Assembly (NCBI RefSeq): GCF_963921235.1
Contig: NC_086108.1
Coordinates: forward strand, 48,238,001 to 48,302,000
DNA length: 64,000 bases
Direction: 5' to 3'
From: Mobula hypostoma
Taxonomy: Eukaryota
The notes beneath the pieces are model-generated. The model saw only the letters and a list, made by a program, of their open reading frames with translations. It was not told where the DNA came from and ran no database searches. Made by a program: the position numbers and the translations under genes. Shown one piece after another: positions 1-49,666 of this stretch (positions are counted from its first letter, which is position 1; every line of letters begins with the position of its first letter).

Positions 1-2
1 GC

Positions 3-38
3 AGTCGACGTTTCAGGCCGAGACCCTTCGTCAGGACT
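3..38 (-). ncRNA. Minimal type-I hammerhead ribozyme motif (intact core) in PLE 3' UTR
   Basis: Minus strand reads AGTC-CTGACGA-AGG GTCTCGG CCT-GAAA-CG-TC-GACT: stem I AGTC/GACT, CUGANGA and GAAA boxes, stem II AGG/CCT, minimal palindromic stem III (ACGT), UC cleavage site. Confidence 0.8.
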
Positions 39-331
39 AACTGAAGGAAGAGTGAGTAAGGGATTTGAAAGCTGGAGGGGGAGGGGGAGATGCAAAATGA
101 TAGGAGAAGACAGGAGGGGGAGGGATAGAGCCGAGAGCTGGACAGGTGATAGGCAAAAGGGGATACGAGAGGATCATGGGACAGGAGGCCTAGGGAGAAA
201 GGCGGGGGGGGGGTGACCCAGAGGATGGGCAAGAGGTATATTCAGAGGGACAGAGGGAGAAAAAGGAGAGTGAGAGAAAGAATGTGTGCATAAAAATGAG
301 TAACAGCTGGGGTACGAGGGGGAGGTGGGGC

Positions 332-3076
332 CTAGCGGAAGTTAGAAAAGTCAATGTTCATGCCATCAGGTTGGAGGCTACCCAGACGGAATATAAGGTG
401 TTGTTCCTCCAACCTGAGTGTGGCTTCATCTTTACAGTAGAGGAGGCCGTGGATAGACATGTCAGAATGGGAATGGGATGTGGAATTAAAATGTGTGGCC
501 ACTGGGAGATCCTGCTTTCTCTGGCGGACAGAGCGTAGATGTTCAGCAAAGCGGTCTCCCAGTCTGCGTCGGGTCTCACCAATATATAAAAGGCCACATC
601 GGGAGCACCAGACGCAGTAAATCACCCCAGTCGACTCACAGGTGAAGTGATGCCTCACCTGGAAGGACTGTTTGGGGCCCTGAATGGTGGTAAGGGAGGA
701 AGTGTAAGGGCATGTGTAGCACTTGTTCCGCTTACACGGATAAGTGCCAGGAGGGAGATCAGTGGGGAGGGATGGGGGGGACGAATGGACAAGGGAGTTG
801 TGTAGGGAGCGATCCCTGCGGAATGCAGAGAGAAGGGGGGAGGGAAAGATGTGCTTAGTGGTGGGATCCCGTTGGAGGTGGCGGAAGTTACGGAGAATAA
901 TATGTTGGACCCGGAGGCTGGTGGGGTGGTAGGTGAGGACCAGGGGAACCCTATTCCTAGTGGGGTGGTGGGAGGATGGAGTGAGAGCAGATGTACGTGA
1001 AATGGAGGAGATGCGTTTAAGAGCAGAGTTGATAGTGGAGGAAGGGAAGCCCCTTTCTTTAAAAAATGAAGACATCTCCCTCATCCTAGAATGAAAAGCC
1101 TCATCCTGAGAGCAGATGCGGCGGAGACGGAGGAATTGCGAGAAGGGGATGGCGTTTTTGCAAGAGACAGGGTGAGAAGAGGAATAGTCCAGATAGCTGT
1201 GAGAGTCAGTAGGCTTATAGTAGATATCAGTGGATAAGCTGTCTCCAGAGACAGAGACAGAAAGATCTAGAAAGGGGAGGGAGGTGTCGGAAATAGACCA
1301 GGTAAACTTGAGGGCAGGGTGAAAGTTGGAGGCAAAGTTAATAAAGTCAACGAGTTCTGCATGCGTGCAGGAAGCAGCGCCAATGCAGTCGTCGATATAG
1401 CGAAGGAAAAGTGGGGGACAGATACCAGAATAGGCACGGAACATAGATTGTTCCACAAACCCAACAAAAAGGCAGGCATAGCTAGGACCCATTCGGGTGC
1501 CCATAGCTACACCTTTAGTTTGGAGGAAATGGGAGGAGCAAAAGGAGAAATTATTAAGAGTAAGGACTAATTCCGCTAGACGGAGCAGAGTGGTGGTAGA
1601 GGGGAACTGATTAGGTCTGGAATCCAAAAAGAAGCGTAGAGCTTTGAGACCTTCCTGATGGGGGATAGAAGTATATAAGGACTGGACGTCCATGGTGAAA
1701 ATAAAGCGGTGGGGGCCAGGGAACTTAAAATCATCGAAAAGTTTAAGAGCGTGAGAAGTGTCACGAACATAGGTCGGAAGGGATTGAACAAGGGGTGATA
1801 AAACAGTGTCGAGGTATGCAGAAACGAGTTCGGTGGGGCAGGAGCAAGCTGAGACAATAGGTCGGCCAGGACAGGCAGGTTTGTGGATCTTGGGTAGGAG
1901 GTAGAAACGGGAAGTGCGGGGTGTGGGAACTATAAGGTTGGTAGCAGTGGATGGGAGATCCCCTGAGCGGATAAAGTCGTTGATAGTGTGGGAGACAATG
2001 GCCTGGTGCTCCTTGGTGGGGTCACGATCGAGGGGTAAATAAGAGGAGGTATCCGCGAGTTGTCGCTGTGCCTCGGCAAGGTAGAGGTCAGTACGCCAGA
2101 CTACAACAGCACCCCCTTTATCAGCGGGTTTAATAATAAGGTTAGGATTAGTGCGGAAGGAGTGGAGAGCAGAGCGTTCCGAAGGAGTGAGGTTGGAATG
2201 GGGACAAGGTGCGGTGAAGTCGAGACGGTTGATGTCCCGTCGGCAGCTGGCAATAAAGAGATCCAGAGCAGGCAGAAGACCAGAGCGGAGTGTCCATGAA
2301 GAAGAGGAGGGTTGAAGACGGGAGAAGGGGTCATCGGTGGGGGTGGAAGAGTCCTTGCCGAAGAAGTAGGCTCGGAGACGGAGACGGCGGAAGAAAAGTT
2401 CCGCATCGTGGCGAACACGGAACTCGCTGAGGTGTGGGCGAAGGGGGACAAACGTGAGGCCCTTACTGAGGACAGAGCGTTCTGCCTCCGACAGTTGAAG
2501 GTCGGAGGGGATGGTAAAGACCCGGCACGGATGAGAGCTGGGATCAGAGGGGGGAGGGGGGAGGCTGGGGGTGTCAATGGAGAGGGGAGGGTTGGGGTGA
2601 GAGGAAGATGGAGCCTCTGAGGGCCCAGGAGTTGACGGTGGGATCTGAGGAAGACGGGGTTGCAGAGTGGTGGTGGGGGAAGGGGAGACGGGAGTCACAA
2701 CAGCAGCACATAAAGACCCGGCCTGGAGTTCAAGGCTGGAGTCGCAGTTGGTGGTTGCGTAATCACTTCGAATGTGTCCATGGTCGTTGCTGGAGTCCAG
2801 GTTTTGAATATGTCCTGAGGTGTTGGAGCCGCCGAGATCAATGGTAGGTGCCGCAATTGAAAGTTCATGCCTGCTAGCGTCGGGGCCGGCAGGCTCTGGA
2901 GTCCGTAGATGTAAGATCTTGCGATCTTTGCCTAACATGACAAAGTCAAAAAAACGGCGATTGCAGGCGTGGATCCGACGGAGGATGAAATACTGGGTAG
3001 GACCATTACAGAAGGCGAAGAAAGTGTCCCGAAGGTGTGGAAGGGTCTGGGATAGGGACACCAAGTACCTCCTCAT
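332..3076 (-). CDS. PLE polyprotein: reverse transcriptase + Cys-rich linker + GIY-YIG endonuclease
   Basis: Motifs KPADKGG, YLLPKIHK, GRPIVS, DVQSLYTSIP, QTKGVAMGT, RYIDD, FLD, CKRNKCYTC, VIYC..CSRC..YIGET..R..EH. The frame stays open upstream to 3223 (LRRQLTPVGFRIRF...), so the true N-terminus is truncated at the junction. Confidence 0.95.
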   Translation of the reverse strand: MRRYLVSLSQTLPHLRDTFFAFCNGPTQYFILRRIHACNRRFFDFVMLGKDRKILHLRTPEPAGPDASRHELSIAAPTIDLGGSNTSGHIQNLDSSNDHGHIRSDYATTNCDSSLELQAGSLCAAVVTPVSPSPTTTLQPRLPQIPPSTPGPSEAPSSSHPNPPLSIDTPSLPPPPSDPSSHPCRVFTIPSDLQLSEAERSVLSKGLTFVPLRPHLSEFRVRHDAELFFRRLRLRAYFFGKDSSTPTDDPFSRLQPSSSSWTLRSGLLPALDLFIASCRRDINRLDFTAPCPHSNLTPSERSALHSFRTNPNLIIKPADKGGAVVVWRTDLYLAEAQRQLADTSSYLPLDRDPTKEHQAIVSHTINDFIRSGDLPSTATNLIVPTPRTSRFYLLPKIHKPACPGRPIVSACSCPTELVSAYLDTVLSPLVQSLPTYVRDTSHALKLFDDFKFPGPHRFIFTMDVQSLYTSIPHQEGLKALRFFLDSRPNQFPSTTTLLRLAELVLTLNNFSFCSSHFLQTKGVAMGTRMGPSYACLFVGFVEQSMFRAYSGICPPLFLRYIDDCIGAASCTHAELVDFINFASNFHPALKFTWSISDTSLPFLDLSVSVSGDSLSTDIYYKPTDSHSYLDYSSSHPVSCKNAIPFSQFLRLRRICSQDEAFHSRMREMSSFFKERGFPSSTINSALKRISSISRTSALTPSSHHPTRNRVPLVLTYHPTSLRVQHIILRNFRHLQRDPTTKHIFPSPLLSAFRRDRSLHNSLVHSSPPSLPTDLPPGTYPCKRNKCYTCPYTSSLTTIQGPKQSFQVRHHFTCESTGVIYCVWCSRCGLLYIGETRRRLGDRFAEHLRSVRQRKQDLPVATHFNSTSHSHSDMSIHGLLYCKDEATLRLEEQHLIFRLGSLQPDGMNIDFSNFR

Positions 3077-3233
3077 GGCGGAGAGCGTCGCCTTCAGAGC
3101 TTGACGGGAGAAGCGGCGAGAGGCAGAGTCAATAAAATGTGAGTACCTGGGATCCTCAGAAGGTCCAAATTGAGAGGCTTGGAAACGAATCCTAAAGCCA
3201 ACTGGAGTAAGTTGGCGACGGAGGCGCCTACCA

Positions 3234-5726
3234 TTGATCTCGGCGGCTCCAACACCTCAGGACATATTCAACGACCATGGACACATTCGAAGTGATTACG
3301 CAACCACCAACTGCGACTCCAGCCTTGAACTCCAGGCCGGGTCTTTATGTGCTGCTGTTGTGACTCCCGTCTCCCCTTCCCCCACCACCACTCTGCAACC
3401 CCGTCTTCCTCAGATCCCACCGTCAACTCCTGGGCCCTCAGAGGCTCCATCTTCCTCTCACCCCAACCCTCCCCTCTCCATTGACACCCCCAGCCTCCCC
3501 CCTCCCCCCTCTGATCCCAGCTCTCATCCGTGCCGGGTCTTTACCATCCCCTCCGACCTTCAACTGTCGGAGGCAGAACGCTCTGTCCTCAGTAAGGGCC
3601 TCACGTTTGTCCCCCTTCGCCCACACCTCAGCGAGTTCCGTGTTCGCCACGATGCGGAACTTTTCTTCCGCCGTCTCCGTCTCCGAGCCTACTTCTTCGG
3701 CAAGGACTCTTCCACCCCCACCGATGACCCCTTCTCCCGTCTTCAACCCTCCTCTTCTTCATGGACACTCCGCTCTGGTCTTCTGCCTGCTCTGGATCTC
3801 TTTATTGCCAGCTGCCGACGGGACATCAACCGTCTCGACTTCACCGCACCTTGTCCCCATTCCAACCTCACTCCTTCGGAACGCTCTGCTCTCCACTCCT
3901 TCCGCACTAATCCTAACCTTATTATTAAACCCGCTGATAAAGGGGGTGCTGTTGTAGTCTGGCGTACTGACCTCTACCTTGCCGAGGCACAGCGACAACT
4001 CGCGGATACCTCCTCTTATTTACCCCTCGATCGTGACCCCACCAAGGAGCACCAGGCCATTGTCTCCCACACTATCAACGACTTTATCCGCTCAGGGGAT
4101 CTCCCATCCACTGCTACCAACCTTATAGTTCCCACACCCCGCACTTCCCGTTTCTACCTCCTACCCAAGATCCACAAACCTGCCTGTCCTGGCCGACCTA
4201 TTGTCTCAGCTTGCTCCTGCCCCACCGAACTCGTTTCTGCATACCTCGACACTGTTTTATCACCCCTTGTTCAATCCCTTCCGACCTATGTTCGTGACAC
4301 TTCTCACGCTTTTAAACTTTTCAATGATTTTAAGTTCCCTGGCCCCCACTGCTTTATTTTCACCATGGATGTCCAGTCCTTATATACTTCCATCCCCCAT
4401 CAGGAAGGTCTCAAAGCTCTACGCTTCCTTTTGGATTCCAGACCTAATCAGTTCCCCTCTACCACCACTCTGCTCCGTCTAGCGGAATTAGTCCTTACTC
4501 TTAATAATTTCTCCTTTTGCTCCTCCCATTTCTTCCAAACTAAAGGTGTAGCCATGGGCACCCGAATGGGTCCTAGCTATGCCTGCCTTTTTGTTGGGTT
4601 TGTGGAACAATCTATGTTCCGTGCCTATTCTGGTATCTGTCCCCCACTTTTCCTTCGCTATATCGACGACTGCATTGGCGCTGCTTCCTGCATGCATGCA
4701 GAACTCGTTGACTTTATTAACTTTGCCTCCAACTTTCACCCTGCCCTCAAGTTTACCTGGTCTATTTCCGACACCTCCCTCCCCTTTCTAGATCTTTCTG
4801 TCTCTGTCTCTGGAGACAGCTTATCCACTGATATCTACTATAAGCCTACTGACTCTCACAGCTATCTGGACTATTCCTCTTCTCACCCTGTCCCTTGCAA
4901 AAACGCCATCCCCTTCTCGCAATTCCTCCGTCTCCGCCGCATCTGCTCTCAGGATGAGGCTTTTCATTCTAGGACGAGGGAGATGTCTTCATTTTTTAAA
5001 GAAAGGGGCTTCCCTTCCTCCACTATCAACTCTGCTCTTAAACGCATCTCCTCCATTTCACGTACATCTGCTCTCACTCCATCCTCCCACCACCCCACTA
5101 GGAATAGGGTTCCCCTGGTCCTCACCTACCACCCCACCAGCCTCCGGGTCCAACATATTATTCTCCGTAACTTCCGCCACCTCCAACGGGATCCCACCAC
5201 TAAGCACATCTTTCCCTCCCCCCTTCTCTCTGCATTCCGCAGGGATCGCTCCCTACACAACTCCCTTGTCCATTCGTCCCCCCCATCCCTCCCCACTGAT
5301 CTCCCTCCTGGCACTTATCCGTGTAAGCGGAACAAGTGCTACACATGCCCTTACACTTCCTCCCTTACCACCATTCAGGGCCCCAAACAGTCCTTCCAGG
5401 TGAGGCATCACTTCACCTGTGAGTCGACTGGGGTGATATACTGCGTCCGGTGCTCCCGATGTGGCCTTTTATATATTGGTGAGACCCGACGCAGACTGGG
5501 AGACCGCTTTGCTGAACATCTACGCTCTGTCCGCCAGAGAAAGCAGGATCTCCCAGTGGCCACACATTTTAATTCCACATCCCATTCCCATTCTGACATG
5601 TCTATCCATGGCCTCCTCTACTGTAAAGATGAAGCCACACTCAGGTTGGAGGAACAACACCTTATATTCCGTCTTGGTAGCCTCCAACCTGATGGCATGA
5701 ACATTGACTTCTCTAACTTCCGCTAG
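3234..5726 (+). CDS. PLE polyprotein (RT + GIY-YIG), N-terminally truncated second copy
   Basis: Same motifs as 332..3076, with 9 amino-acid differences, all in the C-terminal part. The first ~11 residues are out of frame because of the 17-bp deletion, and the TTG start is probably not real. Confidence 0.9.
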   Translation: MISAAPTPQDIFNDHGHIRSDYATTNCDSSLELQAGSLCAAVVTPVSPSPTTTLQPRLPQIPPSTPGPSEAPSSSHPNPPLSIDTPSLPPPPSDPSSHPCRVFTIPSDLQLSEAERSVLSKGLTFVPLRPHLSEFRVRHDAELFFRRLRLRAYFFGKDSSTPTDDPFSRLQPSSSSWTLRSGLLPALDLFIASCRRDINRLDFTAPCPHSNLTPSERSALHSFRTNPNLIIKPADKGGAVVVWRTDLYLAEAQRQLADTSSYLPLDRDPTKEHQAIVSHTINDFIRSGDLPSTATNLIVPTPRTSRFYLLPKIHKPACPGRPIVSACSCPTELVSAYLDTVLSPLVQSLPTYVRDTSHAFKLFNDFKFPGPHCFIFTMDVQSLYTSIPHQEGLKALRFLLDSRPNQFPSTTTLLRLAELVLTLNNFSFCSSHFFQTKGVAMGTRMGPSYACLFVGFVEQSMFRAYSGICPPLFLRYIDDCIGAASCMHAELVDFINFASNFHPALKFTWSISDTSLPFLDLSVSVSGDSLSTDIYYKPTDSHSYLDYSSSHPVPCKNAIPFSQFLRLRRICSQDEAFHSRTREMSSFFKERGFPSSTINSALKRISSISRTSALTPSSHHPTRNRVPLVLTYHPTSLRVQHIILRNFRHLQRDPTTKHIFPSPLLSAFRRDRSLHNSLVHSSPPSLPTDLPPGTYPCKRNKCYTCPYTSSLTTIQGPKQSFQVRHHFTCESTGVIYCVRCSRCGLLYIGETRRRLGDRFAEHLRSVRQRKQDLPVATHFNSTSHSHSDMSIHGLLYCKDEATLRLEEQHLIFRLGSLQPDGMNIDFSNFR

Positions 5727-6020
5727 GCCCCACCTCCCCCTCGTACCCCAGCTGTTACTCATTTTTATGCACACATTCTTTCTCTCACTCTCCTTTTTCT
5801 CCCTCTGTCCCTCTGAATATACCTCTTGCCCATCCTCTGGGTCACCCTCCCCCCCGTCTTTCTCCCTAGGCCTCCTGTCCCATGATCCTCTCGTATCCCC
5901 TTTTGCCTATCACCTGTCCAGCTCTCGGCTCTATCCCTCCCCCTCCTGTCTTCTCCTATCATTTTGCATCTCCCCCTCCCCCTCCAGCTTTCAAATCCCT
6001 TACTCACTCTTCCTTCAGTT

Positions 6021-6056
6021 AGTCCTGACAAAGGGTCTCGGCCTGAAACGTCGACT
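6021..6056 (+). ncRNA. Hammerhead ribozyme motif, right-arm copy with G8>A core mutation
   Basis: AGTC-CTGACAA-AGGGTCTCGGCCT-GAAA-CGTC-GACT; differs from the left copy only at 6030 (CpG transition). Confidence 0.7.
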
Positions 6057-7100
6057 GCACCTCTTCCTACAGATGCTGCTTGGCCTGCTGCGTTCACCAG
6101 CAACTTTGATGTATGTTGCTTGATCCTCATGTCTAAACCTCTTTGTTCAATAATAAAACAGGACCCCTAAGTTCCTGGCAATCTGAGGAATCAGCAGTTT
6201 TGTTTTGAATTTTTTTTTATTAGCATTCCTCCATTTAGATATTTGCCTAGAAGAAACCCATCCTCCATGGCAGGAAATCCCCATTCACTCTCGGATTAGC
6301 TTTATGACATTTACATGTGGCACAGAGCAGATATTCCAATTTCCTCTGCCAGTGGCCAAGAGCAGAACATATCTGAGGCTTTGAGCAACGGAAATCTTTC
6401 CCCTGCTTTTTAATACTTCTGCCAAGAGAATAGACTAGATCGTAGTTACATTCTGATCCATAATCAAGGATTATGATGAGATGATCACAATAAAGGTAAA
6501 GGCTACTGTTCGATATGCATCAGCTGTCCGAACAAATTTGGTATGAATGTTATCTAGATCACTCAATTACATTTTTGAAGGGGATTTTACTGTTTCATTC
6601 AGATGCAAAATAGACAGAATATCCTCTTTTTTTTCCAGCATTGATGTTATGTAAAAATTGGGCTGAAACTACTTTTGCTGGTAGTTTTGTAAAGAAGTGT
6701 CAGCATGCAACTCTTTTGCGATCTGCACTCTGTAGGCGATACCATGGTGTAGCGTGGATGTCTGAGACCAGCTGAAGGTGGGCATCATTGCATACGCACC
6801 CCGCTCTGCCACTGGACTGAACACTGAATATCTACACCAGTCGTGTTTCACTCTGGGGTTAAGTCAGTTTTGCTATTCCCTTAAAATGTTGGGGATGTGA
6901 AAGGGTTAATGCCAAGTGTTCGTTATCTAATTTACTTAATAATGCCACTTTCAATGAATTAATATCACTTAAATGTATTTATAAAAAATTTATTACTGAC
7001 TTTAAAAAAAACCTTTAAGCTTATTTTAATTCTTTCAAGCTGTTTTTAAATGTCTTAGAACATCAGTGACATTTAAAAACTATTCAATGGCTTTTCAGAA

Positions 7101-7742
7101 GTTCAAAGTAAATTTATTATCAAAGTACATGTATGTCACTATATATAACCCTGAGATTCATTTTCTTGCGGGCATACTCAGTAAGTCCGTAATGGAATAA
7201 TAACCATAATGGAATCAATGAAAGACCATTTGTCTTTTGTTCAACCAGTGTGAAAAAGACAACAAACTGCAAGTACAAATAGAAAGAAATAATAAATAAA
7301 TAAACAATAAATATTGAGAACATGAGATGAAGAGTCCTTGAAAATAAGTGCATAGGTTGTGGGAACATTTCAGTGATGGAGCAAGTGAAGTTATCCCCTT
7401 TGGTTCAAGAACCTGATGGTTGAGTGATAATAATTGTTCCTGAATCTGCTGGTGTGAGTCCGGAGGCTCCTGTACCTTCTTCCTGATGGTGTGAGTCCGG
7501 AGGCTCCTGTACCTTCTTCCTGATGGCATCAGTGAAAAGAGAGCGTGTCCTGCGTGGTGGGAGTTCTTGATGATAGATGCTGCTTTCCTGCACATCTATC
7601 AATGTTTCATATAGGTATGCTCAGGGGTGGGGAGAGCTTTACCTGTGATTGACTGAGCCGTATCCGCTACGTTTTGTAGGATTTTCTGTTCAAAGGCATT
7701 GGTGTTTCCATACCAGGTTGTGATGCAGCCAGTCAATATATT
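7101..7742 (-). mobile_element. Rex1/Babar-type LINE, 3' fragment
   Basis: ORF 7215..7595 reads CRKAASIIKNSHHAGHALFSLMPSGRRYRSLRTHT, a typical Rex C-terminus. 3' UTR is similar to 39700-40010. Confidence 0.8.
7450..7526. repeat. 37-bp perfect tandem duplication
   Basis: tggtgtgagtccggaggctcctgtaccttcttcctga occurs twice (7450-7486, 7487-7523), followed by tgg. Confidence 0.95.
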
Positions 7743-7847
7743 CTTGTGATATAGAAGGAGGCCTTTCTACCCATCCAAACAATGTTAGCTCAGAGTGAAC
7801 TCTCAAGGACGGTATTTTCCCCACAGGGTTAGCTGGAACCTCTTCCT

Positions 7848-8346
7848 TCCAGAGAAGGTTCACAAGAATGACTCCGGGGAAAAAAGGGGTTAACATATGA
7901 GGCGCATTTGATAGCTCTAGGCCTGTACTTTCTGGAGTTTATAGTTATGATGGGAGATCTCATTGAAACTTATCAAATATTGAATGGCCTGAATAGATTG
8001 GATCTGGGAAGGGTGTTTTCAATAAGAGTGAGTCTATGACTAAATGGCAAAGCCTCAGACGAGAGGGACATCCATTTAGAACAGAGATGGGGAGGAATTT
8101 CTTTAGCCAGAGGGTAGTGAATCTGTGGAATACATTACCACAGACTGCTGTGGAGGATAAATCACTGAGTATATTTAAAGCAGAGGTTGATAGGTTGTTG
8201 ATTAGCCAGGGCATCAAAGGTTACGGAGAGAAGGAGGAAGAATGGGATTGAGAGGGATAATAAATCAGCCATGATTGAATGGTAGAGCAGACTCGATGGT
8301 CTGAATGGCCTAATTCTGCTCCTATGTCTTACAGTCTCATGGTCTC
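7848..8346 (+). mobile_element. CR1-type LINE, 3' fragment
   Basis: GHPFRTEMGRNFFSQRVVNLWNTLP motif and the CR1 tail ...aatggcctaattctgctcctatgtctt. Confidence 0.85.
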
Positions 8347-8756: not shown

Positions 8757-9655
8757 ACATACATCTATTGATGCTTCTGGACACACCTTCAGTGATGTTC
8801 CTGTTTCGGGTCTTTCAACATCATACAACCTCCTCCAGGTGACCCAGCCGGGGCTGATCAGACCCCATCTTGTGTCCAGATGGCTAGCTACTTATGACTC
8901 CATGGCTCCACTCTTTTGAGCCACAGCCATCTTGAGGCCCTCTCTGCCGCATCGGTGGTACTGCGGATGGCTCTCCTCTTCCTCTCTCCCTCGATGCCCA
9001 AAATGCTGAAGGCTCTAACTAAAGAACGGGCTACGAATCCCCTACAACCAACCTCCACTGGGAGATACCTCGCTCTCCATCCAGCCTGCTGACAGTTGCT
9101 GACCAGTCCTGTGTACTTGGAGAGCTTCCTTTCAAAGGCCTCCTCCAAGCGATCTTCCCATGGGACTGTCAGCTCCAGCAGCACCATTTGCTTAGTAGAC
9201 TCAGACACTAGGACAATGTCTGTTCACAGGGTGGTGGCTGCGATATGGTTGGGGAACTTCAGCTGCCCTTTGAGGTCCACCAACAGCTGCCAGTCCCTTG
9301 CAGAGGTCAGAATGCCTGCAGATGTTCTTTTGGCGGGTATTGACTGCTCCCCAGCTCTGACAAAGGCAATGGTCTGCTTGGAGGGTCGGGACTGCTTCGC
9401 CCACTCAACTCCTGCGCTGACGGCTTCAGCGATGGTCTTCAGGACCTGATCATGCCTCCACCTGTACCGTCCCTCACCAAGCGCCCTTGCACAGCCGCTG
9501 AGGATGTGCTGCAGGGTTCCTCGCTTGGAGCACAGTGGGCACGCAGGTGACTCTGCCTTGCCCCATGTATACAGGTTTGATGGGCTTGGAAGCACATTGT
9601 ACACTGCTTGGATGAGAAATTGGATGCGGTGTGGTTCGGCTTTCGGAAATCAGCG
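8757..9655 (-). mobile_element. Hero/R2-superfamily (RLE endonuclease) non-LTR retrotransposon, 3' fragment
   Basis: CPLCSKRGTLQHILSGC zinc knuckle, RHDQVL, LELTVPWE...ERKLSKY, PVEVGCRGF; frameshifted. Confidence 0.85.
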
Positions 9656-10116: not shown

Positions 10117-10213
10117 TCAACACATTCTAAATGCTGGAGAAACTCAGCAGGTCAGGCAGTATACATGGAAACAAACAGTCGAGGTTTCAGGCTGCGAATC
10201 TTCCTCAGGACTG
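10117..10213 (-). mobile_element. Degenerate PLE 3'-end remnant with decayed hammerhead
   Basis: aatgctggagaaactcagcaggtcaggcag...cagtcgaggtttcaggc...tcaggactg aligns to 1-40 and 36530-36625. Confidence 0.75.
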
Positions 10214-10367: not shown

Positions 10368-10512
10368 GTGACGTCAGATGGTTACGTGACCGTACGTAGA
10401 GATGGAAGTCTTCATATTGAAAGGATTCGCCTACGAGATGGTGGAAAATACACATGCCTTGCCAGTAACGTTGCTGGAACAAGCAACAGAACTACTACTG
10501 TGAATATATTTG
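10368..10512 (+). CDS. HMCN1: Hemicentin-1 exon (Ig domain C-half), phase 0>1
   Basis: ctag|GTG...TTTG|gtgagt; VTSDGYVTVRRDGSLHIERIRLRDGGKYTCLASNVAGTSNRTTTVNIF; 145 bp. Confidence 0.92.
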
Positions 10513-11085
10513 GTGAGTGTGATTCGACTGCTGTCCCAAGAGACCACGTGATTGGAGTAGAAGGAGCACTGCAAGTTGATGAGTTGTGAAATATTTGAGA
10601 TAATGTTGATCCCTATTTCTGCCTTTTTATTTGGAGCCATTGAAATTATGTTACATTTTACCTTTGTTATTTAACGATTGTGAAAAAACATAATGGTAAA
10701 TGAATTGTAAGTGATTTCCACATGACATGTTAACTTTACCAGATGTGTCACCAGGGGCAACCAGGTGTACAATAACAGATTATGTACAAGAACATTTTTT
10801 TTGGGTAGGTTTCCTGTCCCCTTCCAATGAATGTCATTTCCTTTTTATGTTTTTGTCTAGAGGGACAATAAAAAAGATATGGCTGAATGCTTTTACTCCT
10901 GACTGTTAGTTTTATTCACAGGAGTATTGGAAAAGGAGGAATTATTTCACCCTTCCGTCTCTCCACCTGCCTTACCAATCAGTAAAGTCAAGGGCAACAT
11001 GTATCTTGATTTACTAGCCTCGGCTCCATTCCCATGACATCACCAGTAGTTCAAGAGTGGAACTTTTGTTCTCAGTTTTGAAGTT

Positions 11086-11910
11086 AGACCACAAGACATG
11101 GGAAAACAATTAGGCCAATTATTTTCCCTCTCAATCCCTTTCTTCTGCCTTCAACCTTTAACCTTTGACACCCTTACTCATCAAGAACCTGTGAACTTGT
11201 GTTGTAAGTATACCCTATGGCATGGCATCTGTGGCAATGAATTCCAGAGAGTCGCCTGCCTCTAGCTACAGAAATTCCTTCTCACCCTTGTGATTGTATT
11301 CAGAGCCTCTGCTCTCTTGTTCTAGACTTGTCCACTATTTGAAACATCCTCTGCACATCCACTCTATCCAGGCCTTTCAATATTCCGTAGATTTCAAGAG
11401 ATCCAAACTCCAGTGATTACAATCCCAGGGACACCACATGCTCCTCATATGTTAAACTTTTCATTTCCTGAATCATTCTTGTGAACCTCGTCTGGACCAT
11501 CTCCAATTCCAGCACCCTTTCTTAGATAAGGGGCTGAAAACTGCTCACAGTACTGTAAGTGCCATCTGACCAGTGCCTTATAAAGCCTTAACATTCTGTC
11601 CTTGTTTTTGTAATCTAGTCCTCTCAAAGTGAATGCTAACATTGCATTTGCCTTCTTCACCACCAACTCAACTTGCAAGTTACCCTTTAGCGAATCCTGC
11701 ATGAGGACTTCCAAGTCCCTTTGTACATCTGATTTCTGAATTTTTTCCCCATTTAGAAAATAGTTTACCCCTTTAGTCCTTCTACCAAAGTGCATGACCA
11801 TACACTTCCCTACACTATATTCCATCTACCAGATCTTTGCTCTGCCTATCTTTGTATCATTTGCAAACTTGGCACAAAGCCATCAGTTCTGTTATCCAGA
11901 TCATCAACAT
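11086..11910 (-). mobile_element. CR1-type LINE, 3' fragment
   Basis: ORF 11445..11825 (KCMVMHFG...LYKALVR..LQYC); CR1 tail near 11086. Confidence 0.85.
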
Positions 11911-11911
11911 A

Positions 11912-12982
11912 TCGAGTAGAAAAAAAGGGGGCCTTTTCTGGTTTGCTGCTGGTGACTAAAATTGTTCCACAAGTGTCAGTGTTGGGACCACTTCTTTTCG
12001 TGTTAGATGTCAATGATTTAGATGACCGAATTGATGGTTTTGTGGCCAAATTTGCAGATGATATGAAGATAGGTGGAGGGGCAGCTAGTGTTGAGGAAAC
12101 AGGGAGTCTGCAAAAAGACTTAGACAGGTTAGGAGATGGGCAAAGAAGTGGCAGTTGAAATATTATGTAGGGAAATGTAATGTCATGCACTTTGGTAGAC
12201 GGAATAAAGGCATAGACTATTTTCTAAACAGGCAGAAAATTCAGAAATCAGAGGTGCAAAGGGACTTGGGTGTCCTCATGTAGGATTCCCCAAAGGTTAA
12301 CTTGCAGGTTGAGTTGGTTGAAAGGAAGCCAAATGTAACGTTAGCATTCATTTTGAGAAGATTAGAATATAAAAGCAAAGATGTAATGCTGACACTTTAT
12401 AAAGCATTGGTCAGACTGCACTTGGAGTATGTGAGCAGTTTTAGGCTCCTTATCTAAGAAAAGATATGTTTGCATTGGAGAGGGTCCAGAGAAGGTTCAC
12501 AAAAATGCTTCCAGGAATGAAAGGGTTAACACATGAGGAGCATTTGATGGCTCTGGGCCTGTACTCCCTGCAGTTTTGAAGAATGAGGGGAGATCACATT
12601 GAAACCTATTGAATATTGAAAGGCCTAGATAGAGTGGATGCAGAGAGGATGTTTCCAAAAGTGGGGGAGTCTAGAACCAGAGGGCACAGTCTCAGAATAG
12701 AGGTATGTCCATTTAGAACAGAGATGAGGCTGAATTTCTTTTGCCAGAAGGTGGTGAATCTGTAGAATTGATTGCCACAGACAGCTGTGGAAGTCAAGTC
12801 ATTGAGTATATTTAAAGCAGAAGTTGATAGGCTCCTGGTTAGTCATGGCGTCGAAGGTTATGGGGAGAAAGCAGGAGAATGGGGTTGAGAGGGATAATAA
12901 ATTAGCCATGATGGAATGGCAGAGCAGACTGGATGAGCTAAATAGCCTAATTCTGCTCCTATGTCTTATAGTCTTGTGGTTT
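11912..12982 (+). mobile_element. CR1-type LINE, 3' fragment
   Basis: VPQVSVLGPLLF...KFADD RT motifs; CR1 tail at 12945-12980. Confidence 0.88.
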
Positions 12983-14139: not shown

Positions 14140-14665
14140 GGGAGGGTAGGTATGTCATTGGGGTCTTCAGGTGGGCACCCTCCTTTTTTGACATTTCATT
14201 GATAAGCCCACGACGTTTCCAGAGGGCTCAACGGTGCTACCTGGCGTCCCAGATACACCCCCCTCAGTTCCATACCCTCCTGTCTTCACCTTGCAGCCCA
14301 GTTGTAGTTTTTCCTTTTAATCCAAATCCAATTGCTGCTTTTTTCTGCTGCGTTTGACAAGGACTTGATTGCTTGTTGGAGGGAGTGACCCCTCACCCCC
14401 ATCTTCTTCAATAGGCTGGTCGTAGATGTAGCAATAAATCCCCTGCATCCCACTTCTACAGGGAAAATCTTGGTCTTCCAGGTATTTTGGGCAGCTTCAA
14501 TTGCCAGTTCAGAGTACTTGGTCTTTTTCCTCTCAAACTTCTTCGACACCATATGCCAGCTTGGCTGTTGTGGACCACAGGACCATGTCTGGCCGGAGTG
14601 TTGTAGCCGCAATGTTTGGGGGAAACACAAGCTTTTTTCCCCCAAGTCCATGTCCATTTTCCAAT
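14140..14665 (-). mobile_element. Second Hero-like RLE retrotransposon 3' fragment (different subfamily)
   Basis: FPPNIAATTLRPDMVLWS and ERKKTKY...FPVEVGCRGF in adjacent frames. Confidence 0.8.
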
Positions 14666-14667
14666 CC

Positions 14668-15202
14668 TATGTTCCCTCTTAACCTATGTTCCCTCTTAAG
14701 TGCGCACGTGAACACCTCTTTTGCCGCTAGCGCACAAAGGAATTTAAACTGAGCACAAAAGGTTGTCACCCTATACTTCGGAGGCATGTGAAGTATATTT
14801 CGTGATCGTACACAATCACACTTCCTTTTCCGGTTTCTGATGCAAACAGTGTTGACAACATGGAATTTGTGATGATTTGTCTGCAGATTTTAGAACTGGC
14901 TTATTTATACTGTTTTTATTGAAGAAATTATTGATTCATTAAGTTGAATTCCAAAGAAACAAAGGGCCTGAAGTGCAAAAGAACTGTTAGTTTATTTAAA
15001 GCAGAATGGCTTAATGAAATAGTAGAAACTTCTACACTGAAAGCTCACGAGGTCAAAATATATAGCTATGAGAAATATTGATGTACAATACAGGTCTTGG
15101 CACAATGCAAAAGTTGCTGGGGAATTTACAAATGGGAAGAAGTGGAGTGATATTTGGAAACTTGACTTCTTAAAGTGTCATTTAGCAAGCAAATCACATA
15201 TG
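14668..15202 (+). mobile_element. Probable hAT-type DNA transposon 5' fragment
   Basis: Starts with a duplicated ctatgttccctcttaa, a possible TIR-like end. Remnant AKVAGEFTNGKKWSDIWKLDFLKCHLASKSH resembles TTF-type zinc fingers of hAT transposases. Confidence 0.5.
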
Positions 15203-16632: not shown

Positions 16633-16689
16633 TTATGAAACTTTTCTGCTAAAGCTTACTGTTTTGTTGCTTGGAACATTTAAGTCTTA

Positions 16690-18205
16690 AGAGTCTGGAT
16701 GCATTGGTCATGATCTTTAAAAAATCACTTGATTCTGGCATTGTCCTGGAGGGCTGGAAGATTGTAAGTGTCACTCCACTCCTTAAGAAGGGAAGAAGGC
16801 AAAAGGAAGGAAATTATAGGCCAGTTAACCCAACCTCAGTGGCTGGGAAAGTTTTGGAGTCTATTATTAAGGATGAAGTTTCAAGGCACTTGGAGACTAA
16901 TGATAAAATAAGGCAAAGTCAGCATAGCTTCTGTAAAAGGAATTCTTGCCTGACGAATTTGTTGGAGTTCTTTGAGGAAGTAACAAACAGGGTGGACAAA
17001 GGAGAGGCAGTGGATGTCATTTACTTTGATTTTCAGAAGGCGTTTGATAAGGTGCCACACATGAGGCTGCTTAACAAGATCAAATCCTATGGCATTACAG
17101 GAAAGATATTGGCATGGATAGCAGAATGGCTGACAGGCAGGAGGCAGTGAGTGGCCTTTTCTGGTTGGCTGTCAGTGACTTGTGGTGTTCCTCAGGGGTC
17201 AGTATTGGGACCACTACTTTTCATATTGCTTGTCAGTGATTTAGATAATGGAATTGATGGCTTTGTGGCAAAGTTTGCAGATGATACAAAGATAGGTGGA
17301 GGGGTAGGTAGTGCTGAGGAAGCAAGGTGATTGTGGCAGTACGTAGGCAAATTGGAAGAATGGACAAAAAAGTGGCAGATGGAATACAGTGTTGAGAAAT
17401 GTATGATAATGTATTTAGGTAAAAGGAACAATAGTGCAGACTATTATCTAAATGGGGAGACATCAGAGGTGCAAAGGAATTTAGGAGTTCTCATGCAAGA
17501 CTCCCAGAAGGTTAATTTACAGGTTGAGTCTGTGGTAAGGAAGCCAAATGCAATGTTGGCATTTATTTAATAGGGAATAGAATATAAAAGCAAGGGGGTA
17601 ATGCTGAGCCTTTATAATACACTAGTCAGGCCGTGCTTAGGGTATTGTCAATGGTTTTGGGCCCTGTATCTCAGATAGGATGTGTTGTCATTGGAGAGTG
17701 TCCAGAGAAAGTTCACAAGGATGATTCTGGGAATGAAGGGCTTAACATAAGAGCTCAATGAAGGGTTTAACATTGGCAGCTTTGGGCCTGTACTCACTAG
17801 AATTTAGAAGTATATGGGGGGATCTCATTGAAGCCTACCAAATGTTGAAAGGACTAGATAGGGTGGATATGAAGAGGATGTTTCCTATGGTGGGGGTATC
17901 CAGAACTAGAGGGTACAGCCTCAAAATTGAGGGGCAACCCTTTAGAACAGTGCTAAAGAGGAATTTTTTTTAGCCAGAGAGTAGTAAATCTGTGGAATGC
18001 TCTGCCACAGACTGCAGTGAAAGCCAAGTCTGTGTGTATATTTAAGGTGGAAGTTGATCGTTTCATGATTGGTTAGGGCATCAAAGGATATGGCGAGAAG
18101 GCAGGTATATGGGGTTGAGTGGGATTTGGGATCAGCCATGATAAAATGGCAGAGTAGACTCGATGGGCTGAATGGCCTAATTCTGCTCCTGTCTTATGGT
18201 TTTAA
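16690..18205 (+). mobile_element. CR1-type LINE, 5'-truncated with stops and frameshifts
   Basis: NYRPV, SCLTNL, DFQKAFDKVPH, PQGSVLGP, FADD; CR1 tail near 18200. Confidence 0.9.
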
Positions 18206-24733: not shown

Positions 24734-27700
24734 AACGATAGAACCATAGAACACTACGGCACAGAAACAGGCCATTCGGACCTTCTAGTCTGTGCAGAAA
24801 CTTTATTCCGCTAGTCCCATTGACCTGCACCCAGTCCATAACCCCCAGACCTCTCCCATCCATGTATCTATCCAATTTAATCTTAAAACTTAAGAGTGAG
24901 ACCGCATTTACCATATCAGATGGAGCTCATTCCACACTCGCTCCACTCTGAGTGAAGAAGTTCCCCCTAATGTTCCCCTTAAACCTTTCCCCCTTTCACC
25001 CTAAAGCCATGTCCTCTTGTATTTATCTCTCCTAATCTAAGTGGAAAGAGCCTACTCGCATTTACTCTGTCTATGCCCCTCATAATTTTGTAAACCTCTA
25101 TCAAATCCCCCCTCATTCTTCTACGCTCCAAGGAATAAAGTCCTAACCTGCTCAATCTTTCCCTGTAACTCAACTCCTGAAGACCCGGCAACATCCTAGT
25201 AAATCTTATCTGCACTCTTTCAATTTTACTGATATCCTTCCTATAGTTAGGTGACCAGAGCTGCACACAGTACTCCAAATTTGGCCTCACCAATGTTTTA
25301 TACAACCTCCCCATAACATCCCAACTCCTATACTCAATACTTTGATTTATGAATGCCAGGATGCCAAAAGCCTTCTTTACAACCCTGTCTACCTGTGACG
25401 CCACTTTCAGGGAATTATGCACCTGAACTCCCAGATCCCTTTGTTCCTCCGCACTCCTCAGGGCCCTACCATTTACTGTGTATGTCCTACCTTAATTTGT
25501 CCTTCCAAAATGCAACACCTCACATGTCTGCATTAAATTCCATCTGCCATTTTCTGGCCCATTTTTCCAATTGGTCCAGATCCCTCTGCAAGCTTTGAAA
25601 GCTTTCCTCACTGTCCACAACGCCTCCAATCTTAGTGTCATCAGCAAACTTGCTGATCCAATTTACCACATTGTCATCTAGATCATTGATATAGACAACA
25701 AACAACAATGGTCCCAGCACAGATCCCTGAGGCACACCACTAGTCACAGGGCTCCAGTCTGAGATGCAATCATCCACTACCACTCTCTGTCTTCTCCCAC
25801 ACAGCCAATTTCGAATCCGGTTTACAACCTCTCCATGGATACCTAGTGTCTGAACCTTATGAACTAACCTCCCATGTGGAACCTTGTCAAAGGCCTTACT
25901 AAAGTCCATGTAGACAACATCCACAGCCTTTCCTTCGTCTACTTTCTTGGTAACCTCCTCGAAAAACTCTACAAGATTCGTTAAACATGATCTACCATGC
26001 ACAAATCCATGTTGACTATCCCTAATCAGCCCTTGGCTGTCCAAATACTTGTATATCTGATCACTCAGAACACCTTCCAATAATTTACCTACTACTGATG
26101 TCAGGCTCACTGGCCTGTAATTACCTGGTTTACTTTTGGAGCCTTTTTTAAACAACGGAACATCATGAGCTACCCTCCAATCCTCCGGCACTGCACCCGT
26201 GGCTAAGGACATTTTAAATATTTCTGCCAGGGCCCCTGCAATTTCTACACTAATCTCTCTCAATGTCCGAGGAAATATCATGTCAGGCCCAGGGGATTTA
26301 TCTACCTTTATTCGCTGTAAGGTAGCAAGCACCACCTCCTCTTTAATCTCTGTGTTCCATGACACTACTGCTTGTTTCCCTTCCTTCCATATACGCTATG
26401 CCAGTTTCCTGAGTAAATACTGATGCAAAAAAAACTGTTTAAGATCTCCCCCATCTCGTGAGGCTCCACACATAGACAACCACTCTGATCTTCTAGGGGA
26501 CCAATTTTTTCCCATATTATCCTTTTACTTTTAATATACTTGTAGAAACCCTTCGGGTTTACCTTCACATTATCTACCAAAGCAACCTCATGTCTTCTTT
26601 TTGTCTTCCTGATTTCCTTCTTTAGTATTTTCTTACATTTTCTATACTCTTCAAGTACCTCATTTGTTCTTTGTTGCCTATACCTGCTATACACCTCTCT
26701 CTTTTTCTTAACCAGATCGCCAATATCCCTTGTAAACCAAGGTTCCCTATGCCTGTTAACTTTGCCTTTAATCCTGGCAGGAACATGCAAACTCTGCACT
26801 CTCAAAATTTCGCCTTTGAAGGCTTTCCACTTAATGAACACACCCTTGCCAGAAAACAACTTATCCCAATCCACTCTTCCTAGATCCTTTCTCATTTCCA
26901 CAAAGTTGGCCCTTCTCCAATTTAGAACCTCAACTTAAGGACCAGACCTGTCCTTATCCATAGTTAACTTGAAACTAATGACATTATGGTCACTGGACCC
27001 AAAATATTCGCCTCCACATACTTCTGTTACCTGACCTGTCTGGTTCCCTAATAGGAGATCAAGTATTGCATCCTCTCTCATAGATACCTCTATGTATTGA
27101 TTTAGAAAACTTTCCTGAACACATTTGACAAACTCCAAGCCATCTAGCCCTTTCATAGTGTGGGAGTCCCAGTCAATATGTGGAAAGTTAAAATCCCCTA
27201 CCATTACAACTTTCTGTTTCTTACATCAGTCTGCTATCTCTCTACAGATTTGCTCCTCCAATTCTCTCTGACTATTGGGCGGTCTATAGTACAACCTTAT
27301 TAGTGTGGTCACACTTTTCCACCCATATGGCCTCTGTAGACAAGCCCTCCAGGCTGTCCTATCTATACACAGCTGTGATATTTTCCCTGACTAGTAATGC
27401 CACTCCTCCCCCTTTTATCCCTCCCCCTCTATCACGTCTGAAACAATGGAACCCCGGAACATTAAGCTGCTAGTCCTGCCCCTCCTGCAACCAAGTCTCA
27501 CTAATAGCAATAATATCGTAATCCCACGTGCCAATCCACGCTGTAAACTCATCTGCCTTACCTACAATACTCCTTGTATTGAAATAGATGCACCTGAGAA
27601 CATCTCTATCACGTACAAACCTTTGATTTCTGTCTATGTATGCAGTCCTTGCATGACCTTTGTCCTCCTCCACTTCACTATCTGCTCTAACACTATGGTT

Positions 27701-36493: not shown

Positions 36494-37028
36494 ACAAGAG
36501 AAAATCTGTCGATGCTGGACATCCGAGAAACACACACAAAATGCTGGAGGAACTCAGCAGGCCAGGCAGCATCTATGGAAAAGAGTACAGTTGACGTTTT
36601 GGGCAGAGACCTTTCATCAGGACTGGAAAAAAAAGAGATTAAGAAGGTGGAGCGATGGGAGGAAGAAAGACAAGGTGACGGGTAAAACAGGAGGGTGGGG
36701 TGGAGAGGGGGTGCAGGGAATTTGATTGGTGAAAGAGATACAGGGCTGAAAAAGGGAATCTGATAGGAGAGCCCTGTATCTCTATCTCCAGCCCTGTTTC
36801 TCTTTCATCAATCAACCTTCCAGCTCCTTACTTCATCCCTTCCCCACCCACTTCCTGGTTTCACCTGTCACCTTGTCTTTCTTCCTCTCCTCCCCCCATC
36901 TTCTTACTTCGACTCCTCGTTTTTTTTCTCCAGACTTGCCGAAGGGTCTCGGCCCGAAACGTCGACTGTACTCTTTTCCATAGATGCTGCCCGGCCTGCT
37001 GAGTTCCTCCAGCATTTTGTGTGTGTTG
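36494..37028. mobile_element. Palindromic non-autonomous PLE insertion (two inverted 3' UTRs) with 13-bp TSD
   Basis: TSD ggtagaaattcaa at 36481-36493 and 37029-37041. Arms are homologous to the PLE 3' UTR at 5900-6120. Decayed hammerheads at 36589-36624 (-) and 36932-36967 (+). Confidence 0.88.
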
Positions 37029-44646: not shown

Positions 44647-47642
44647 CAGTGGTCCCCAACCTCTGGGCCGCGGACCAATACCGGTCCGCGAAGCATGCAG
44701 GGGTGCAGCAGTAGCGGGGACGCACCCAGGCGGCAGTCGGCAATCGCCTCTGATCTGGGCCGACATTTACGTGCTGGGCACCACCTAATTAATTAGCTTG
44801 TTTATTTCGGCTTTTTTCTTAAAGATGTAGAACATAGAACATAGAATAGTACAGCGCAGTACAGGCCCTTCGGCCCACAATGTTGCGCTGATCCTCAAAC
44901 CCTGCCTCTCATATAAGCCCCCACCTTAAATTCCTCCATATACCTGTCTAGTAGTCTCTTAAACTTCACTAGTGTATCTGCCTCCACCACTGACTCAGGC
45001 AGTGCATTCTACGCACCAACCACTCTCTGACTAAAAAAACCCTCCTCTAATATCCCCCTTGAACTTCCCACCCCTTACCTTAAAGCCATGTCCTCTTGTA
45101 TTGAGCAGTGGTGCCCTGGGGAAGAGGCGCTGGCTATCCACTCTATCTATTCCTCTTATTATCTTGTACACCTCTATCATGTCTCCTCTCATCCTCCTTC
45201 TCTCCAAAGAGTAAAGCCCTAGCTCCCTTAATCTCTGATCATAATGCATACTCTCTAAACCAGGCAGCATCCTGGTAAATCTCCTCTGTACCCTTTCCAG
45301 TGCTTCCACATCCTTCCTATAGTGAGGTGACCAGAACTGGACACAGTACTCCAAGTGTGGCCTAACCAGAGTTTTATAGAGCTGCATCATTACATCGCGA
45401 CTCTTAAACTCTATCCCTCGACCTATGAAAGCTAACACCCCATAAGCTTTCTTAACTACCCTATCCTCCTGTGAGGCAACTTTCAGGGCTCTGTGGACAT
45501 GTACCCCGAGATCCCTCTGCTCCTCCACACTACCAAGTATCCTGCCATTTACTTTGTACTCTGCCTTGGAGTTTGTCCTTCCAAAGTGTACCACCTCACA
45601 CTTCTCTGGGTTGAACTCCATCTGCCACTTCTCAGCCCACTTCTGCATCCTATCAATGTCTCTCTGCAATCTTTGACAATCCTCTACACTATCTACAACA
45701 CCACCAACTTTTGTGTCGTCTGCAAACTTGCCAACCCACCCTTCTACCCCGACATCCAGGTCGTTAATAAAAATCACAAAAAGTAGAGGTCCCAGAACAG
45801 ATCCTTGTGGGACACCACTAGTCACAATCCTCCAATCTGAATGTACTCCCTTCACCACCACCCTCTGCCTTCTGCAGGCAAGCCAATTCTGAATCCACCT
45901 GGCCAAACTTCCCTGGATCCCATGCCTTCTAACTTTCTGAATAAGCCTACCGTGTGGAACCTTGTCAAATGCCTTACTAAAATCCATATAGATCACATCC
46001 ACTGCACTAACCTCATCTGTATGCCTGGTCACCTCCTCAAAGAACTCTATCAGGCTTGTTAGACACGATCTGCCCTTCACAAAGCCATGCTGACTGTCCC
46101 TGATCAGACCATGATTCTCTAAATGCGTATAGATCCTATCTCTAAGAATCTTTTCCAACAGCTTTCCCACCACAAATGTAAGACTCACTGGTCTATAATT
46201 ACCTGGACTATCCCTACTACCTTTTTTGAACAAGGGGACAACATTCGCCTCCCTCCAATCCTCCGGTACCATTCCCGTGGACAACGAGGACATAAAGATC
46301 CTAGCCAGAGGCTCAGCAATCTCTTCTCTCGCCTCGTGGAGCAGCCTGGGGAATATTCCGTCAGACCCTGGGGACTTATTTTAACAACTCCAACACCTCC
46401 TCTCCTTTAATATCAACATGCTCCAGAACATCAACCTCACTCATATTGTCCTCACCATCATCAAGTTCCCTCTCATTAGTGAATACCGAAGAGAAGTATT
46501 CATTGAGGACCTCGCTCACTTCCACAGACTCCAGGCACATCTTCCCACCTTTATCTCTAATCGGTCCTACCTCCACTCCTGTCATCCTTTTTTTCTTCAC
46601 ATAATTGAAGAATGCCTTGGGGTTTTCCTTTACCCTACTTGCGAAGGCCTTCTCATGCCCCCTTCTTGCTCTTCTCAGCCCCTTCTTAAGCTCCTTTCTT
46701 GCTTCCCTATATTCCTCAATAGACCCATCTGATCCTTGCTTCCTAAACCTCATGTATGCTGCCTTCTTCCACCTGACTAGATTTTCCACCTCACTTGTCA
46801 CCCATGGTTCCTTCACCCTACCATTCTTTATCTTCCTCACCGGGACAAATTTATCCCTTACATCCCGCAAGAGATCTCTAAACATTGACCACATGTCCAT
46901 AGTACATTTCCCTGCAAAAACTTCATCCCAATTCACACCCGCAAGTTCTAGCCTTATAGCCTCATAATTTGCCTTTTCCCAATTAAAAATTTTCCTGTCC
47001 TCTCTGATTCTATCCTTTTCCATAATGCTAAAGGCCAGGGAGCGGTGGTCACTGTCCCCCAGATGCTCACCCGCTGAGAGATCTGTGACCTGACCCGGTT
47101 CATTACCTAGTACTAGATCTAGTATGGTATTCCCCCTAGTCGGCCAGTCCACATATTGTGACAGGAATCCATCCTGGACACACTTAACAAACTCTGCCCC
47201 ATCTAAACCCTTGGAACTAATCAGGTGCCAATCAATATTAGTGAAGTTAAAGTCACCTATGATAACAACCCTGTTATTTTTGCACCTTTCCAAAATCTGT
47301 CTCCCAATCTGCTCCTCTGTATCTCTGCTGCTACCAGGGGGCCTATAGAATACCCCCAATAGAGTAACTGCTCCCTTCCTGTTCCTGACTTCCACCCATA
47401 CTGACTCAAAAGAGGATCCTGCTACATTACCCACCCTTTCTGTAGTTGTAATAGTATCCCTGACCAGTAATGCCACCCCTCCTCCCCTTTTTCCGCCCTC
47501 TCTATCCCTTCTAAAGCACTGAAATCCAGGAATATTGAGAATCCATTCCTGCCCATGTGCTGAGTGCATCCAGGCTACCGCTGTGCCCCTGCATGCTTTG
47601 CTGCCTGGTATCAGTCCGCGACCTGGAGGTTGGGGACCACTG
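44647..47642. mobile_element. hAT-type MITE (~270 bp of own sequence) containing a nested CR1
   Basis: 8-bp TSD acttaaac at 44639-44646 and 47643-47650. 17-bp perfect TIR cagtggtccccaacctc, extending ~85 bp imperfectly. Confidence 0.9.
44829..47554 (-). mobile_element. Young CR1 LINE, 5'-truncated within the APE domain; most of ORF2 retained
   Basis: ORFs 46376..47569 (APE: YRPP, GDFN, SDH) and 45031..46293 (RT). Tail (agaacat)n. atgt duplicated at 44825-44828 and 47555-47558. Confidence 0.93.
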
Positions 47643-49393: not shown

Positions 49394-49666
49394 TTCCTCC
49401 AAGAATTCGGTCTGGACCCCGCATTATAAAAGTCCAAGCAGGTCAAAGGATTGATATCCCCTGCAATGCACAGGGCGTGCCAACTCCCAGCGTAAGCTGG
49501 TATAAAGAAAAGAGTAACATTTCATTCAATAAAGAACAGTACAGTGTGGACACAGAAGGAACGTTGACTATTAAGAAGGTCCAACTCAATGATGATGGAG
49601 TTTATACATGTGTTGCCAAGAATGTGGCTGGACAACATGAAGTAAATACAACTGTACAGGTTCATG
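49394..49666 (+). CDS. HMCN1: Hemicentin-1 exon (complete Ig domain), phase 1>1
   Basis: ttag|TTCCT...CATG|gtaggt; (V)PPRIRSGPRIIKVQAGQRIDIPCNAQG...DDGVYTCVAKNVAG...VQVH; 273 bp. Confidence 0.94.

Follow-up and report, generated by a model that had tools for sequence, protein, structure and literature searches.

A hammerhead motif pair in a head-to-head Penelope insertion of Mobula hypostoma, with a probably neutral G8>A change in the copy on the host sense strand

Minimal hammerhead ribozymes (min-HHRs) have been described from the Penelope elements (PLEs) of metazoans by Cervera and de la Pena (2014; PMC4209133). As characterized there, they are of type I, lack a loop 3, have a palindromic 15.2-16.2 helix, an extra residue that separates position 9 from position 10.1 and a helix I of 4 bp, and are found as thousands of dispersed single copies, with some pairs on opposite strands; they were reported in fish Xena, Poseidon and Neptune PLEs, and no cartilaginous fish is among the hosts named in the parts of that paper drawn on here. 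Monomers of these ribozymes were inactive and dimers weakly active (PMC4209133). In the Poseidon-clade element PAc of Anolis carolinensis (Frangieh et al., 2024; PMC11167929), the hammerhead likewise lies in the terminal repeat, and the sections of that report used here state that it cleaved only with the PLE protein, that G8C abolished cleavage and C3G/G8C partly restored it, that hammerhead mutants still inserted in vitro, and that no RNA-seq ends fell at the cut site. Neptune-type EN+ PLEs (Craig et al., 2021, PMC8557442; Arkhipova et al., 2013, PMC3846280) show head-to-head inversion, a one-sided tail, target-site duplications and, in longer copies, a partial-tandem pLTR; a CX2-5CxxC linker before GIY-YIG is given as a mark of Neptune and Nematis PLEs (PMC8557442). 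Non-LTR retrozymes (bioRxiv 10.64898/2026.07.22.740005) have PLE-derived type-I hammerheads as well, in non-coding tandem arrays, and the main account of that preprint has tandem retrozymes in the one chondrichthyan genome sampled. Our literature search on Penelope in chondrichthyans returned no title on the family described below (the supplements of the preprint may list it), and a search for intronic hammerheads by sense or antisense orientation returned only an unrelated title. The PLE minimal hammerhead is a known kind, of which this family is a further member.

We analyzed a 64,000-nt window of the Mobula hypostoma genome (contig NC_086108.1, positions 48,238,001 to 48,302,000), in which the original prediction had placed an intact hammerhead motif at 3-38 (reverse strand) and a version with G8>A at 6021-6056 (forward strand); both the coordinates and the sequence proved exact. 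Using the standard hammerhead numbering as in PMC4209133, the only difference between the two 36-nt motifs is at G8 (position 29 in the left copy and 6030 in the right copy), and the change at 6030 is a CpG>CpA transition. Stem I has 4 bp; the core CUGACGA is followed by one extra A; stem II is GGG/CCU (3 bp with a 6-nt loop), followed by GAAA; and stem III is a loop-less ACGU palindrome, with C17 at position 7 in the left copy and 6052 in the right one, where the predicted scissile bond is 6052/6053. The left copy agrees with the full core consensus (C3-U4-G5-A6-N7-G8-A9, G12-A13-A14-A15.1, U16.1-H17), and the right copy fails at G8. The stem II originally proposed, AGG/CCU, turned out to be an alternative register, while the hammerhead layout itself holds; helix II closes with a G-U pair here and is GGG/CCC in the other subfamily of copies. 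All of the min-HHR traits listed above, including the loop-less palindromic helix III and the extra base after A9, are present. The reading of the motif as a minimal type-I hammerhead of the PLE kind, dependent on a partner and with G8 in its core, is supported; helix II is the point of difference, having only 3 bp compared with 6-8 bp in the published examples (PMC4209133).

Exact matches to the intact 30-mer core number 46,838 in the 3.48-Gb genome, against none for its reversed control, so the motif is not a product of chance; the descriptor used in PMC4209133 gave about 4,000 copies in coelacanth and about 9,000 in Xenopus. Covariance models did not bear the assignment out: an Rfam scan of window 1-8000 at E<=10 returned no hammerhead model match and three weak unrelated matches, and thus the assignment rests on the core consensus together with the PLE literature. 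A descriptor search of 1.78 Mb of gene bodies for unrelated hammerheads with covarying stems found none, recovering the Penelope family and one likely chance match. The short helix II, together with the A6C variant discussed below, adds natural variants for ribozyme work.

The first 6,123 nt of the window form a head-to-head inverted pair of PLE arms sharing 98.7% identity over 2,853 columns. The left arm (1-3222, reverse strand) is 5'-truncated, with the upstream pLTR and some 198 nt of the 5' region missing; it extends for about 94 nt past the window start and has a tail of about 30 nt. The right arm (3223-6123, forward strand) is about 370 nt shorter at its 5' end, has a 17-nt deletion at 3272, and is tail-less. 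Beyond the hammerhead, both arms contain 66 nt more of terminal-repeat sequence (6057-6122 on the forward strand, reaching the tail-less end), and the tail is added on the left arm only. The motifs therefore do not occupy the outer ends of the arms, as had been supposed: the right one is set back 66 nt from its end and the left one about 96 nt; the left motif seems terminal because the window cuts the left arm at its first base.

An open frame in the left arm (332-3220, reverse strand; N-terminus missing) encodes a reverse transcriptase (RT), a linker and a GIY-YIG-type endonuclease, and the same frame is found in the right arm (3272-5726, forward strand); the Pfam matches to PF00078 (RT; E 3-5e-5) and PF01541 (GIY-YIG; E 8e-4) are below the curated cut-offs. 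The linker, CKRNKCYTC (CX4CxxC), precedes GIY-YIG in both arms. Among 8,000 candidates scored, 628 homologues of the element protein were found at E<=1e-50, and the nearest named one is an uncharacterized protein of Chiloscyllium punctatum (72% identical, with 78% of the query covered). The linker motif, and the fact that Neptune has been reported in fishes, point to a Neptune-type EN+ Penelope, in contrast to PAc, which belongs to the Poseidon clade (PMC11167929). The two elements share the C3-G8 core and have two end points one tail of about 30 nt apart, a tail that is explained in the anole by two reverse-transcription start sites; they differ in that the PAc ORF starts in stem II (PMC11167929), whereas here stops close the frame until about 100 nt past the motif. 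In five long elements of this family the main frame opens about 100 nt 3' of the hammerhead, and the first methionine common to all five is about 145 nt past it.

A single target-site duplication of 13-14 nt surrounds the whole pair (its right copy is at 6123-6136, and its left copy lies just past the tail of the left arm, upstream of the window), so the two arms are one insertion event. This layout agrees with that of Neptune-type EN+ PLEs (PMC8557442; PMC3846280), except that the insertion has no direct upstream pLTR and that target-site duplications reach 16 nt in this family, compared with 8-10 nt in the rotifer examples. It also differs from the retrozymes (10.64898/2026.07.22.740005), since it is a coding PLE remnant with its motifs on opposite strands. 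Among 20 loci identical to the 5' end of the left arm, 13 have a same-strand hammerhead 328 nt upstream, which places this upstream motif about 3.5 kb from the expected downstream motif in long elements, and two more have a truncated pLTR. The upstream copy is absent from the insertion studied here, so its two motifs are never on one RNA; and since they are on opposite strands, they cannot dimerize in cis.

Such inverted pairs are common in the family. In the six gene bodies sampled (see below), 50 of 96 young matches fall in 25 head-to-head inverted pairs, many of only tens to hundreds of bases; pairs were defined by a 7-kb rule, and a few may be mis-paired. A tail at one end only is seen in 23 of the 25 pairs and a target duplication of at least 8 nt in 16; the ends fall mainly at two points separated by about 25-30 nt, with one end of each kind in 23 of the 25 pairs. 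The window itself contains three older, decayed terminal-repeat copies, at 10132-10212 (reverse strand), 36526-36624 (reverse strand) and 36937-37028 (forward strand), the last two of which are head-to-head.

The host gene is identified as a hemicentin gene from its domain order, in which a vWA domain precedes a long array of Ig I-set domains, all on one strand. Exons about 127 kb upstream of the window match VWA_4 (PF25106; E 5e-22) with 53-57% identity to a hemicentin-1-like protein, and Ig exons extend from -48 kb to +254 kb, all on the forward strand, including half an Ig domain at 10389-10514 and an Ig I-set exon at 49393-49668 in the window; a homologue search with an Ig exon, limited to proteins of up to 2000 aa, returned no vertebrate hemicentin. 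These exons uphold the original host assignment at the hemicentin level. On either side, the closest exons detected are some 10.5 kb upstream of the window and at 10,389, so the insertion is intronic, and because all host exons are on the forward strand, the right, G8>A copy is the sense copy. This confirms the original placement of the mutated copy in sense and of the intact copy in antisense orientation to the host gene, both within an intron.

We consider it highly probable that the two motifs represent the terminal-repeat hammerhead of a single insertion, head-to-head and 5'-truncated, of an abundant Penelope-like element, that this hammerhead probably works only in a partial-tandem transcript of the element, and that G8>A is likely a neutral CpG deamination that followed the insertion. 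By analogy with published PLEs, two same-strand motifs in the transcript of a partial-tandem source element would pair through ACGU, probably aided by the PLE protein, and the paired motifs would cut after C17, by which the element RNA would be processed. Priming on both target strands, a mechanism suggested by the anole element (PMC11167929), would then yield the inverted pair and the target duplication. A lone copy in the host pre-mRNA, with no near partner and a predicted misfold, would be inert; selection would then be blind to its core, which would decay at the background rate.

Predicted folds are in line with an inert monomer. For monomers, the predicted structures are hairpins or rods in which the core is buried (z about -0.4 to +1.2), and the hammerhead dimer fold is predicted at -6.7 kcal/mol, compared with -28.3 kcal/mol for the best alternative dimer; with the hammerhead fold scoring so far below the alternatives, dimers too would need help. 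This predicted misfolding, the inactivity of min-HHR monomers (PMC4209133) and the need for protein in the anole (PMC11167929) all weaken the premise of host pre-mRNA being cut by a single sense copy. The same folds, being non-hammerhead, may be read in another way, namely that the motif is a hammerhead-like relic kept for a role other than cleavage, such as protein binding, folding near the reverse-transcription start, or a promoter. The low published activity (PMC4209133) and the dispensability of cleavage for insertion in vitro (PMC11167929) would fit such a role, as would a core change, A6>C, which 16 of 64 older copies carry and which a looser pattern matched exactly 442 times in the genome. 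However, A6C is known as a natural cleaving variant, which favors Mn2+ (PMC7151607), and the anole mutants, with cleavage lost in G8C and partly rescued in C3G/G8C, tie that core to cleavage (PMC11167929). Some flank differences are linked to A6>C, which suggests that the copies carrying it are a side-lineage.

Conservation of the motif depends on the depth of the comparison. Among young copies, the change rates are 1.9% in the non-CpG core, 1.3% in the loop and 2.6% downstream, so that at this depth the core is no better conserved than its flanks, an outcome that the original prediction had named as refuting. Such uniformity is expected of dead copies, and gives no support for function; since dead copies decay uniformly, we set this comparison aside as a refuting test and used the cross-lineage comparison instead, in which the motif does surpass its flanks. 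Between young and old copies, the commonest letter differs in 2 of the 36 motif columns and in 9 of the 30 adjacent flank columns; a block further downstream is also conserved (1 of 19 columns differs). Contigs of four other organisms lose similarity at the motif borders (at 6021 in three of four runs, and at 6057 in all four). Judged from these alignments, which were obtained with a query that itself contains the motif, the motif appears as a conserved island across lineages, above its flanks. The two motif columns that differ are N7 and the closing base of stem II, both of which a hammerhead tolerates, and this, too, argues against the relic; we regard that alternative as unlikely, with a small but appreciable chance of being right. 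No compensatory stem changes were seen among the gene-body copies.

The original prediction left it open whether G8>A in the sense copy arose by chance CpG decay or by selection, the latter on the grounds that an intact sense copy would cut the hemicentin transcript, so that its inactivation would be favored. That the mutated copy is the sense one and that the change falls on a catalytic base are as this would require, and tandem retrozymes are mildly under-represented in Xenopus introns, although about 43% are still intronic, according to the main account of the preprint (10.64898/2026.07.22.740005). If inactivation were selected in sense introns, an excess of G8>A would be predicted. The motif contains four CpGs, and thus eight variants with a single CpG-decay change, for which we counted exact 30-mer matches in the whole genome: 2,652 for G8>A, 4,320 for C7>U, 2,964 and 3,982 for the loop C>T and G>A, 3,222 for C15.2>U, 3,737 for G16.2>A, 2,764 for C17>U, and 3,252 for G1.1>A. 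G8>A is the rarest of the eight; relative to the intact core it reaches 5.7%, near the values for the other three TCG-context changes (5.9-6.9%). With no excess found, the idea of selection is not supported. The commonest CpG variant is C7>U, a tolerated change, and its surplus may reflect the sequence context or source lineages that carry C7>U.

We also compared sense and antisense copies in gene bodies. Five more gene bodies, with their strand taken from CUB-domain exons, were added to hemicentin, for a total of 1,781,600 nt in six genes; the labels CSMD, CUBN and TLL are tentative ones for the sampled CUB-domain genes. (On contig C64, at 52.71-52.97 Mb, there is a tandem array of near-identical CUB-domain exons, many of which score alike.) BLAST gave 222 matches in the six gene bodies, 117 sense and 105 antisense, and 78 of these were kept as young and core-spanning (tail identity of at least 0.79 and an alignment starting at position 14 or before, thresholds set after a first look), with 144 dropped. 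This young set shows no shortage of sense copies (36 vs. 42 antisense, p=0.57). Intact cores are found in 32 of 36 sense and 28 of 42 antisense young copies, and intact core and stems in 21/36 and 14/42; the three fully intact sense copies in the hemicentin gene itself are among the evidence that such copies are tolerated. G8>A occurs in one of the 36 young sense copies, which is the copy at 6021-6056 (95% interval, 0.07-14.5%), and in five of the 42 antisense copies; across all ages it is found in 8/76 sense and 10/80 antisense of the 156 core-spanning copies. Exact motifs number about 25 in the 1.78 Mb of gene bodies, compared with 24 expected from the genome-wide density. Elsewhere in the hemicentin gene, at about -115 kb, another pair mirrors the one at 1-6123: its G8>A change is on the antisense arm.

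Sense copies are thus neither fewer nor more often broken in these six gene bodies, contrary to what a purge of sense ribozymes would give; if anything they are more often intact. The small orientation sample excludes a strong purge and leaves room for weak selection. As intact copies occur on the sense strand of the same gene and of others, the broken sense copy is likely a case of ordinary decay, and selection for the protection of hemicentin pre-mRNA, largely refuted at the resolution tested, seems to us scarcely credible. Of the two options in the original prediction, chance CpG decay is the one favored. The apparent sense bias toward intact cores (uncorrected Fisher p=0.03 and 0.04) is not put forward as real, because it is gone once the copies are split by subfamily, in pairs, and across ages. 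By subfamily, intact cores are 29/30 sense vs. 23/26 antisense (p=0.33) and 2/5 vs. 5/16 (p=1.0); among 18 inverted pairs with both cores, four have the sense core intact and the antisense core broken and two the reverse (p=0.69); and for all ages the values are 41/76 and 37/80 (p=0.42). In the younger subfamily, sense copies have a mean of 0.60 changes and antisense copies 1.04.

With about 47,000 identical intact half-ribozymes, many of them sense-oriented in introns, the genome amounts to a natural experiment, and the slight excess of intact sense cores among young copies is compatible with a further reading. Wherever the element's protein and RNA are present, which would likely be in germ-line cells, PLE transcripts could associate in trans with intronic motifs, and host pre-mRNAs could be cleaved at thousands of positions. 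If true, this would be a transposon-switched RNA cleavage system tolerated by the host; we hold it to be very improbable.

The differences between the two arms bear on when G8>A arose. The arms differ by 19 substitutions, nine of which are CpG transitions, six of these in the right arm. For the 18 sites covered by other copies, 11 changes, G8>A among them, are private to the right arm and seven to the left. The inner 1,039 nt (3272-4310 vs. 1748-2786, with 55 CpGs) contain no substitutions, and the outer 1,748 nt contain 18 (p about 3e-4), so plain uniform decay is not sufficient for the whole pattern; the identical inner arms point to conversion at the palindrome center or to a template switch during insertion. 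The latter leaves a small chance that G8>A arrived with the template: the arms would then derive from two different source transcripts, of which one had an inactive ribozyme, and the inner kilobase would have been copied from one of the two. It would be in keeping with the anole PLE protein, which extends both target strands, and with the insertion of hammerhead mutants (PMC11167929). But most of the differences between the arms are missing from other copies or uncommon there, the allele set of the right arm is seen in none of the 28 long copies listed, and gene conversion at the palindrome center would also account for the identical core, which makes a template origin improbable in our view.

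With deamination after insertion as the preferred reading, the G8>A copy at 6021-6056 belongs to a set of about 2,650 copies that have this CpG change, and has little meaning for the locus itself. The result of wider reach is a negative one, that intact PLE hammerheads are tolerated in sense introns at the genome-average density, and this lends support to the view in the literature that a single copy is inert on its own, requiring a partner, the PLE protein, or both. The high copy number also makes this genome a well-powered system for an annotated sense-versus-antisense test.

Other elements in the window are presumably also retrotransposons. We take the region at 54088-59462 (reverse strand; ORFs at 58578-59462, 55794-58007 and 54088-55863) to be a near-complete L1-like LINE, with ORF1 and a broken ORF2, antisense to the host gene; those at 45031-47644, 24979-26934, 11445-12223 and 16653-17150 are presumably CR1/L2-like LINE fragments with long open frames; and those at 8888-9649 and 14286-14889 (both reverse strand) resemble, as we would classify them, a restriction-like-endonuclease non-LTR retrotransposon, having a zinc-knuckle and an ELTVPWE-type motif. 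Older inverted repeats at 7848-8263 and 11119-11496 (72-87% identity, about 3 kb apart) lie on either side of the host exon at 10389, and are likely two LINE fragments in opposite orientation.
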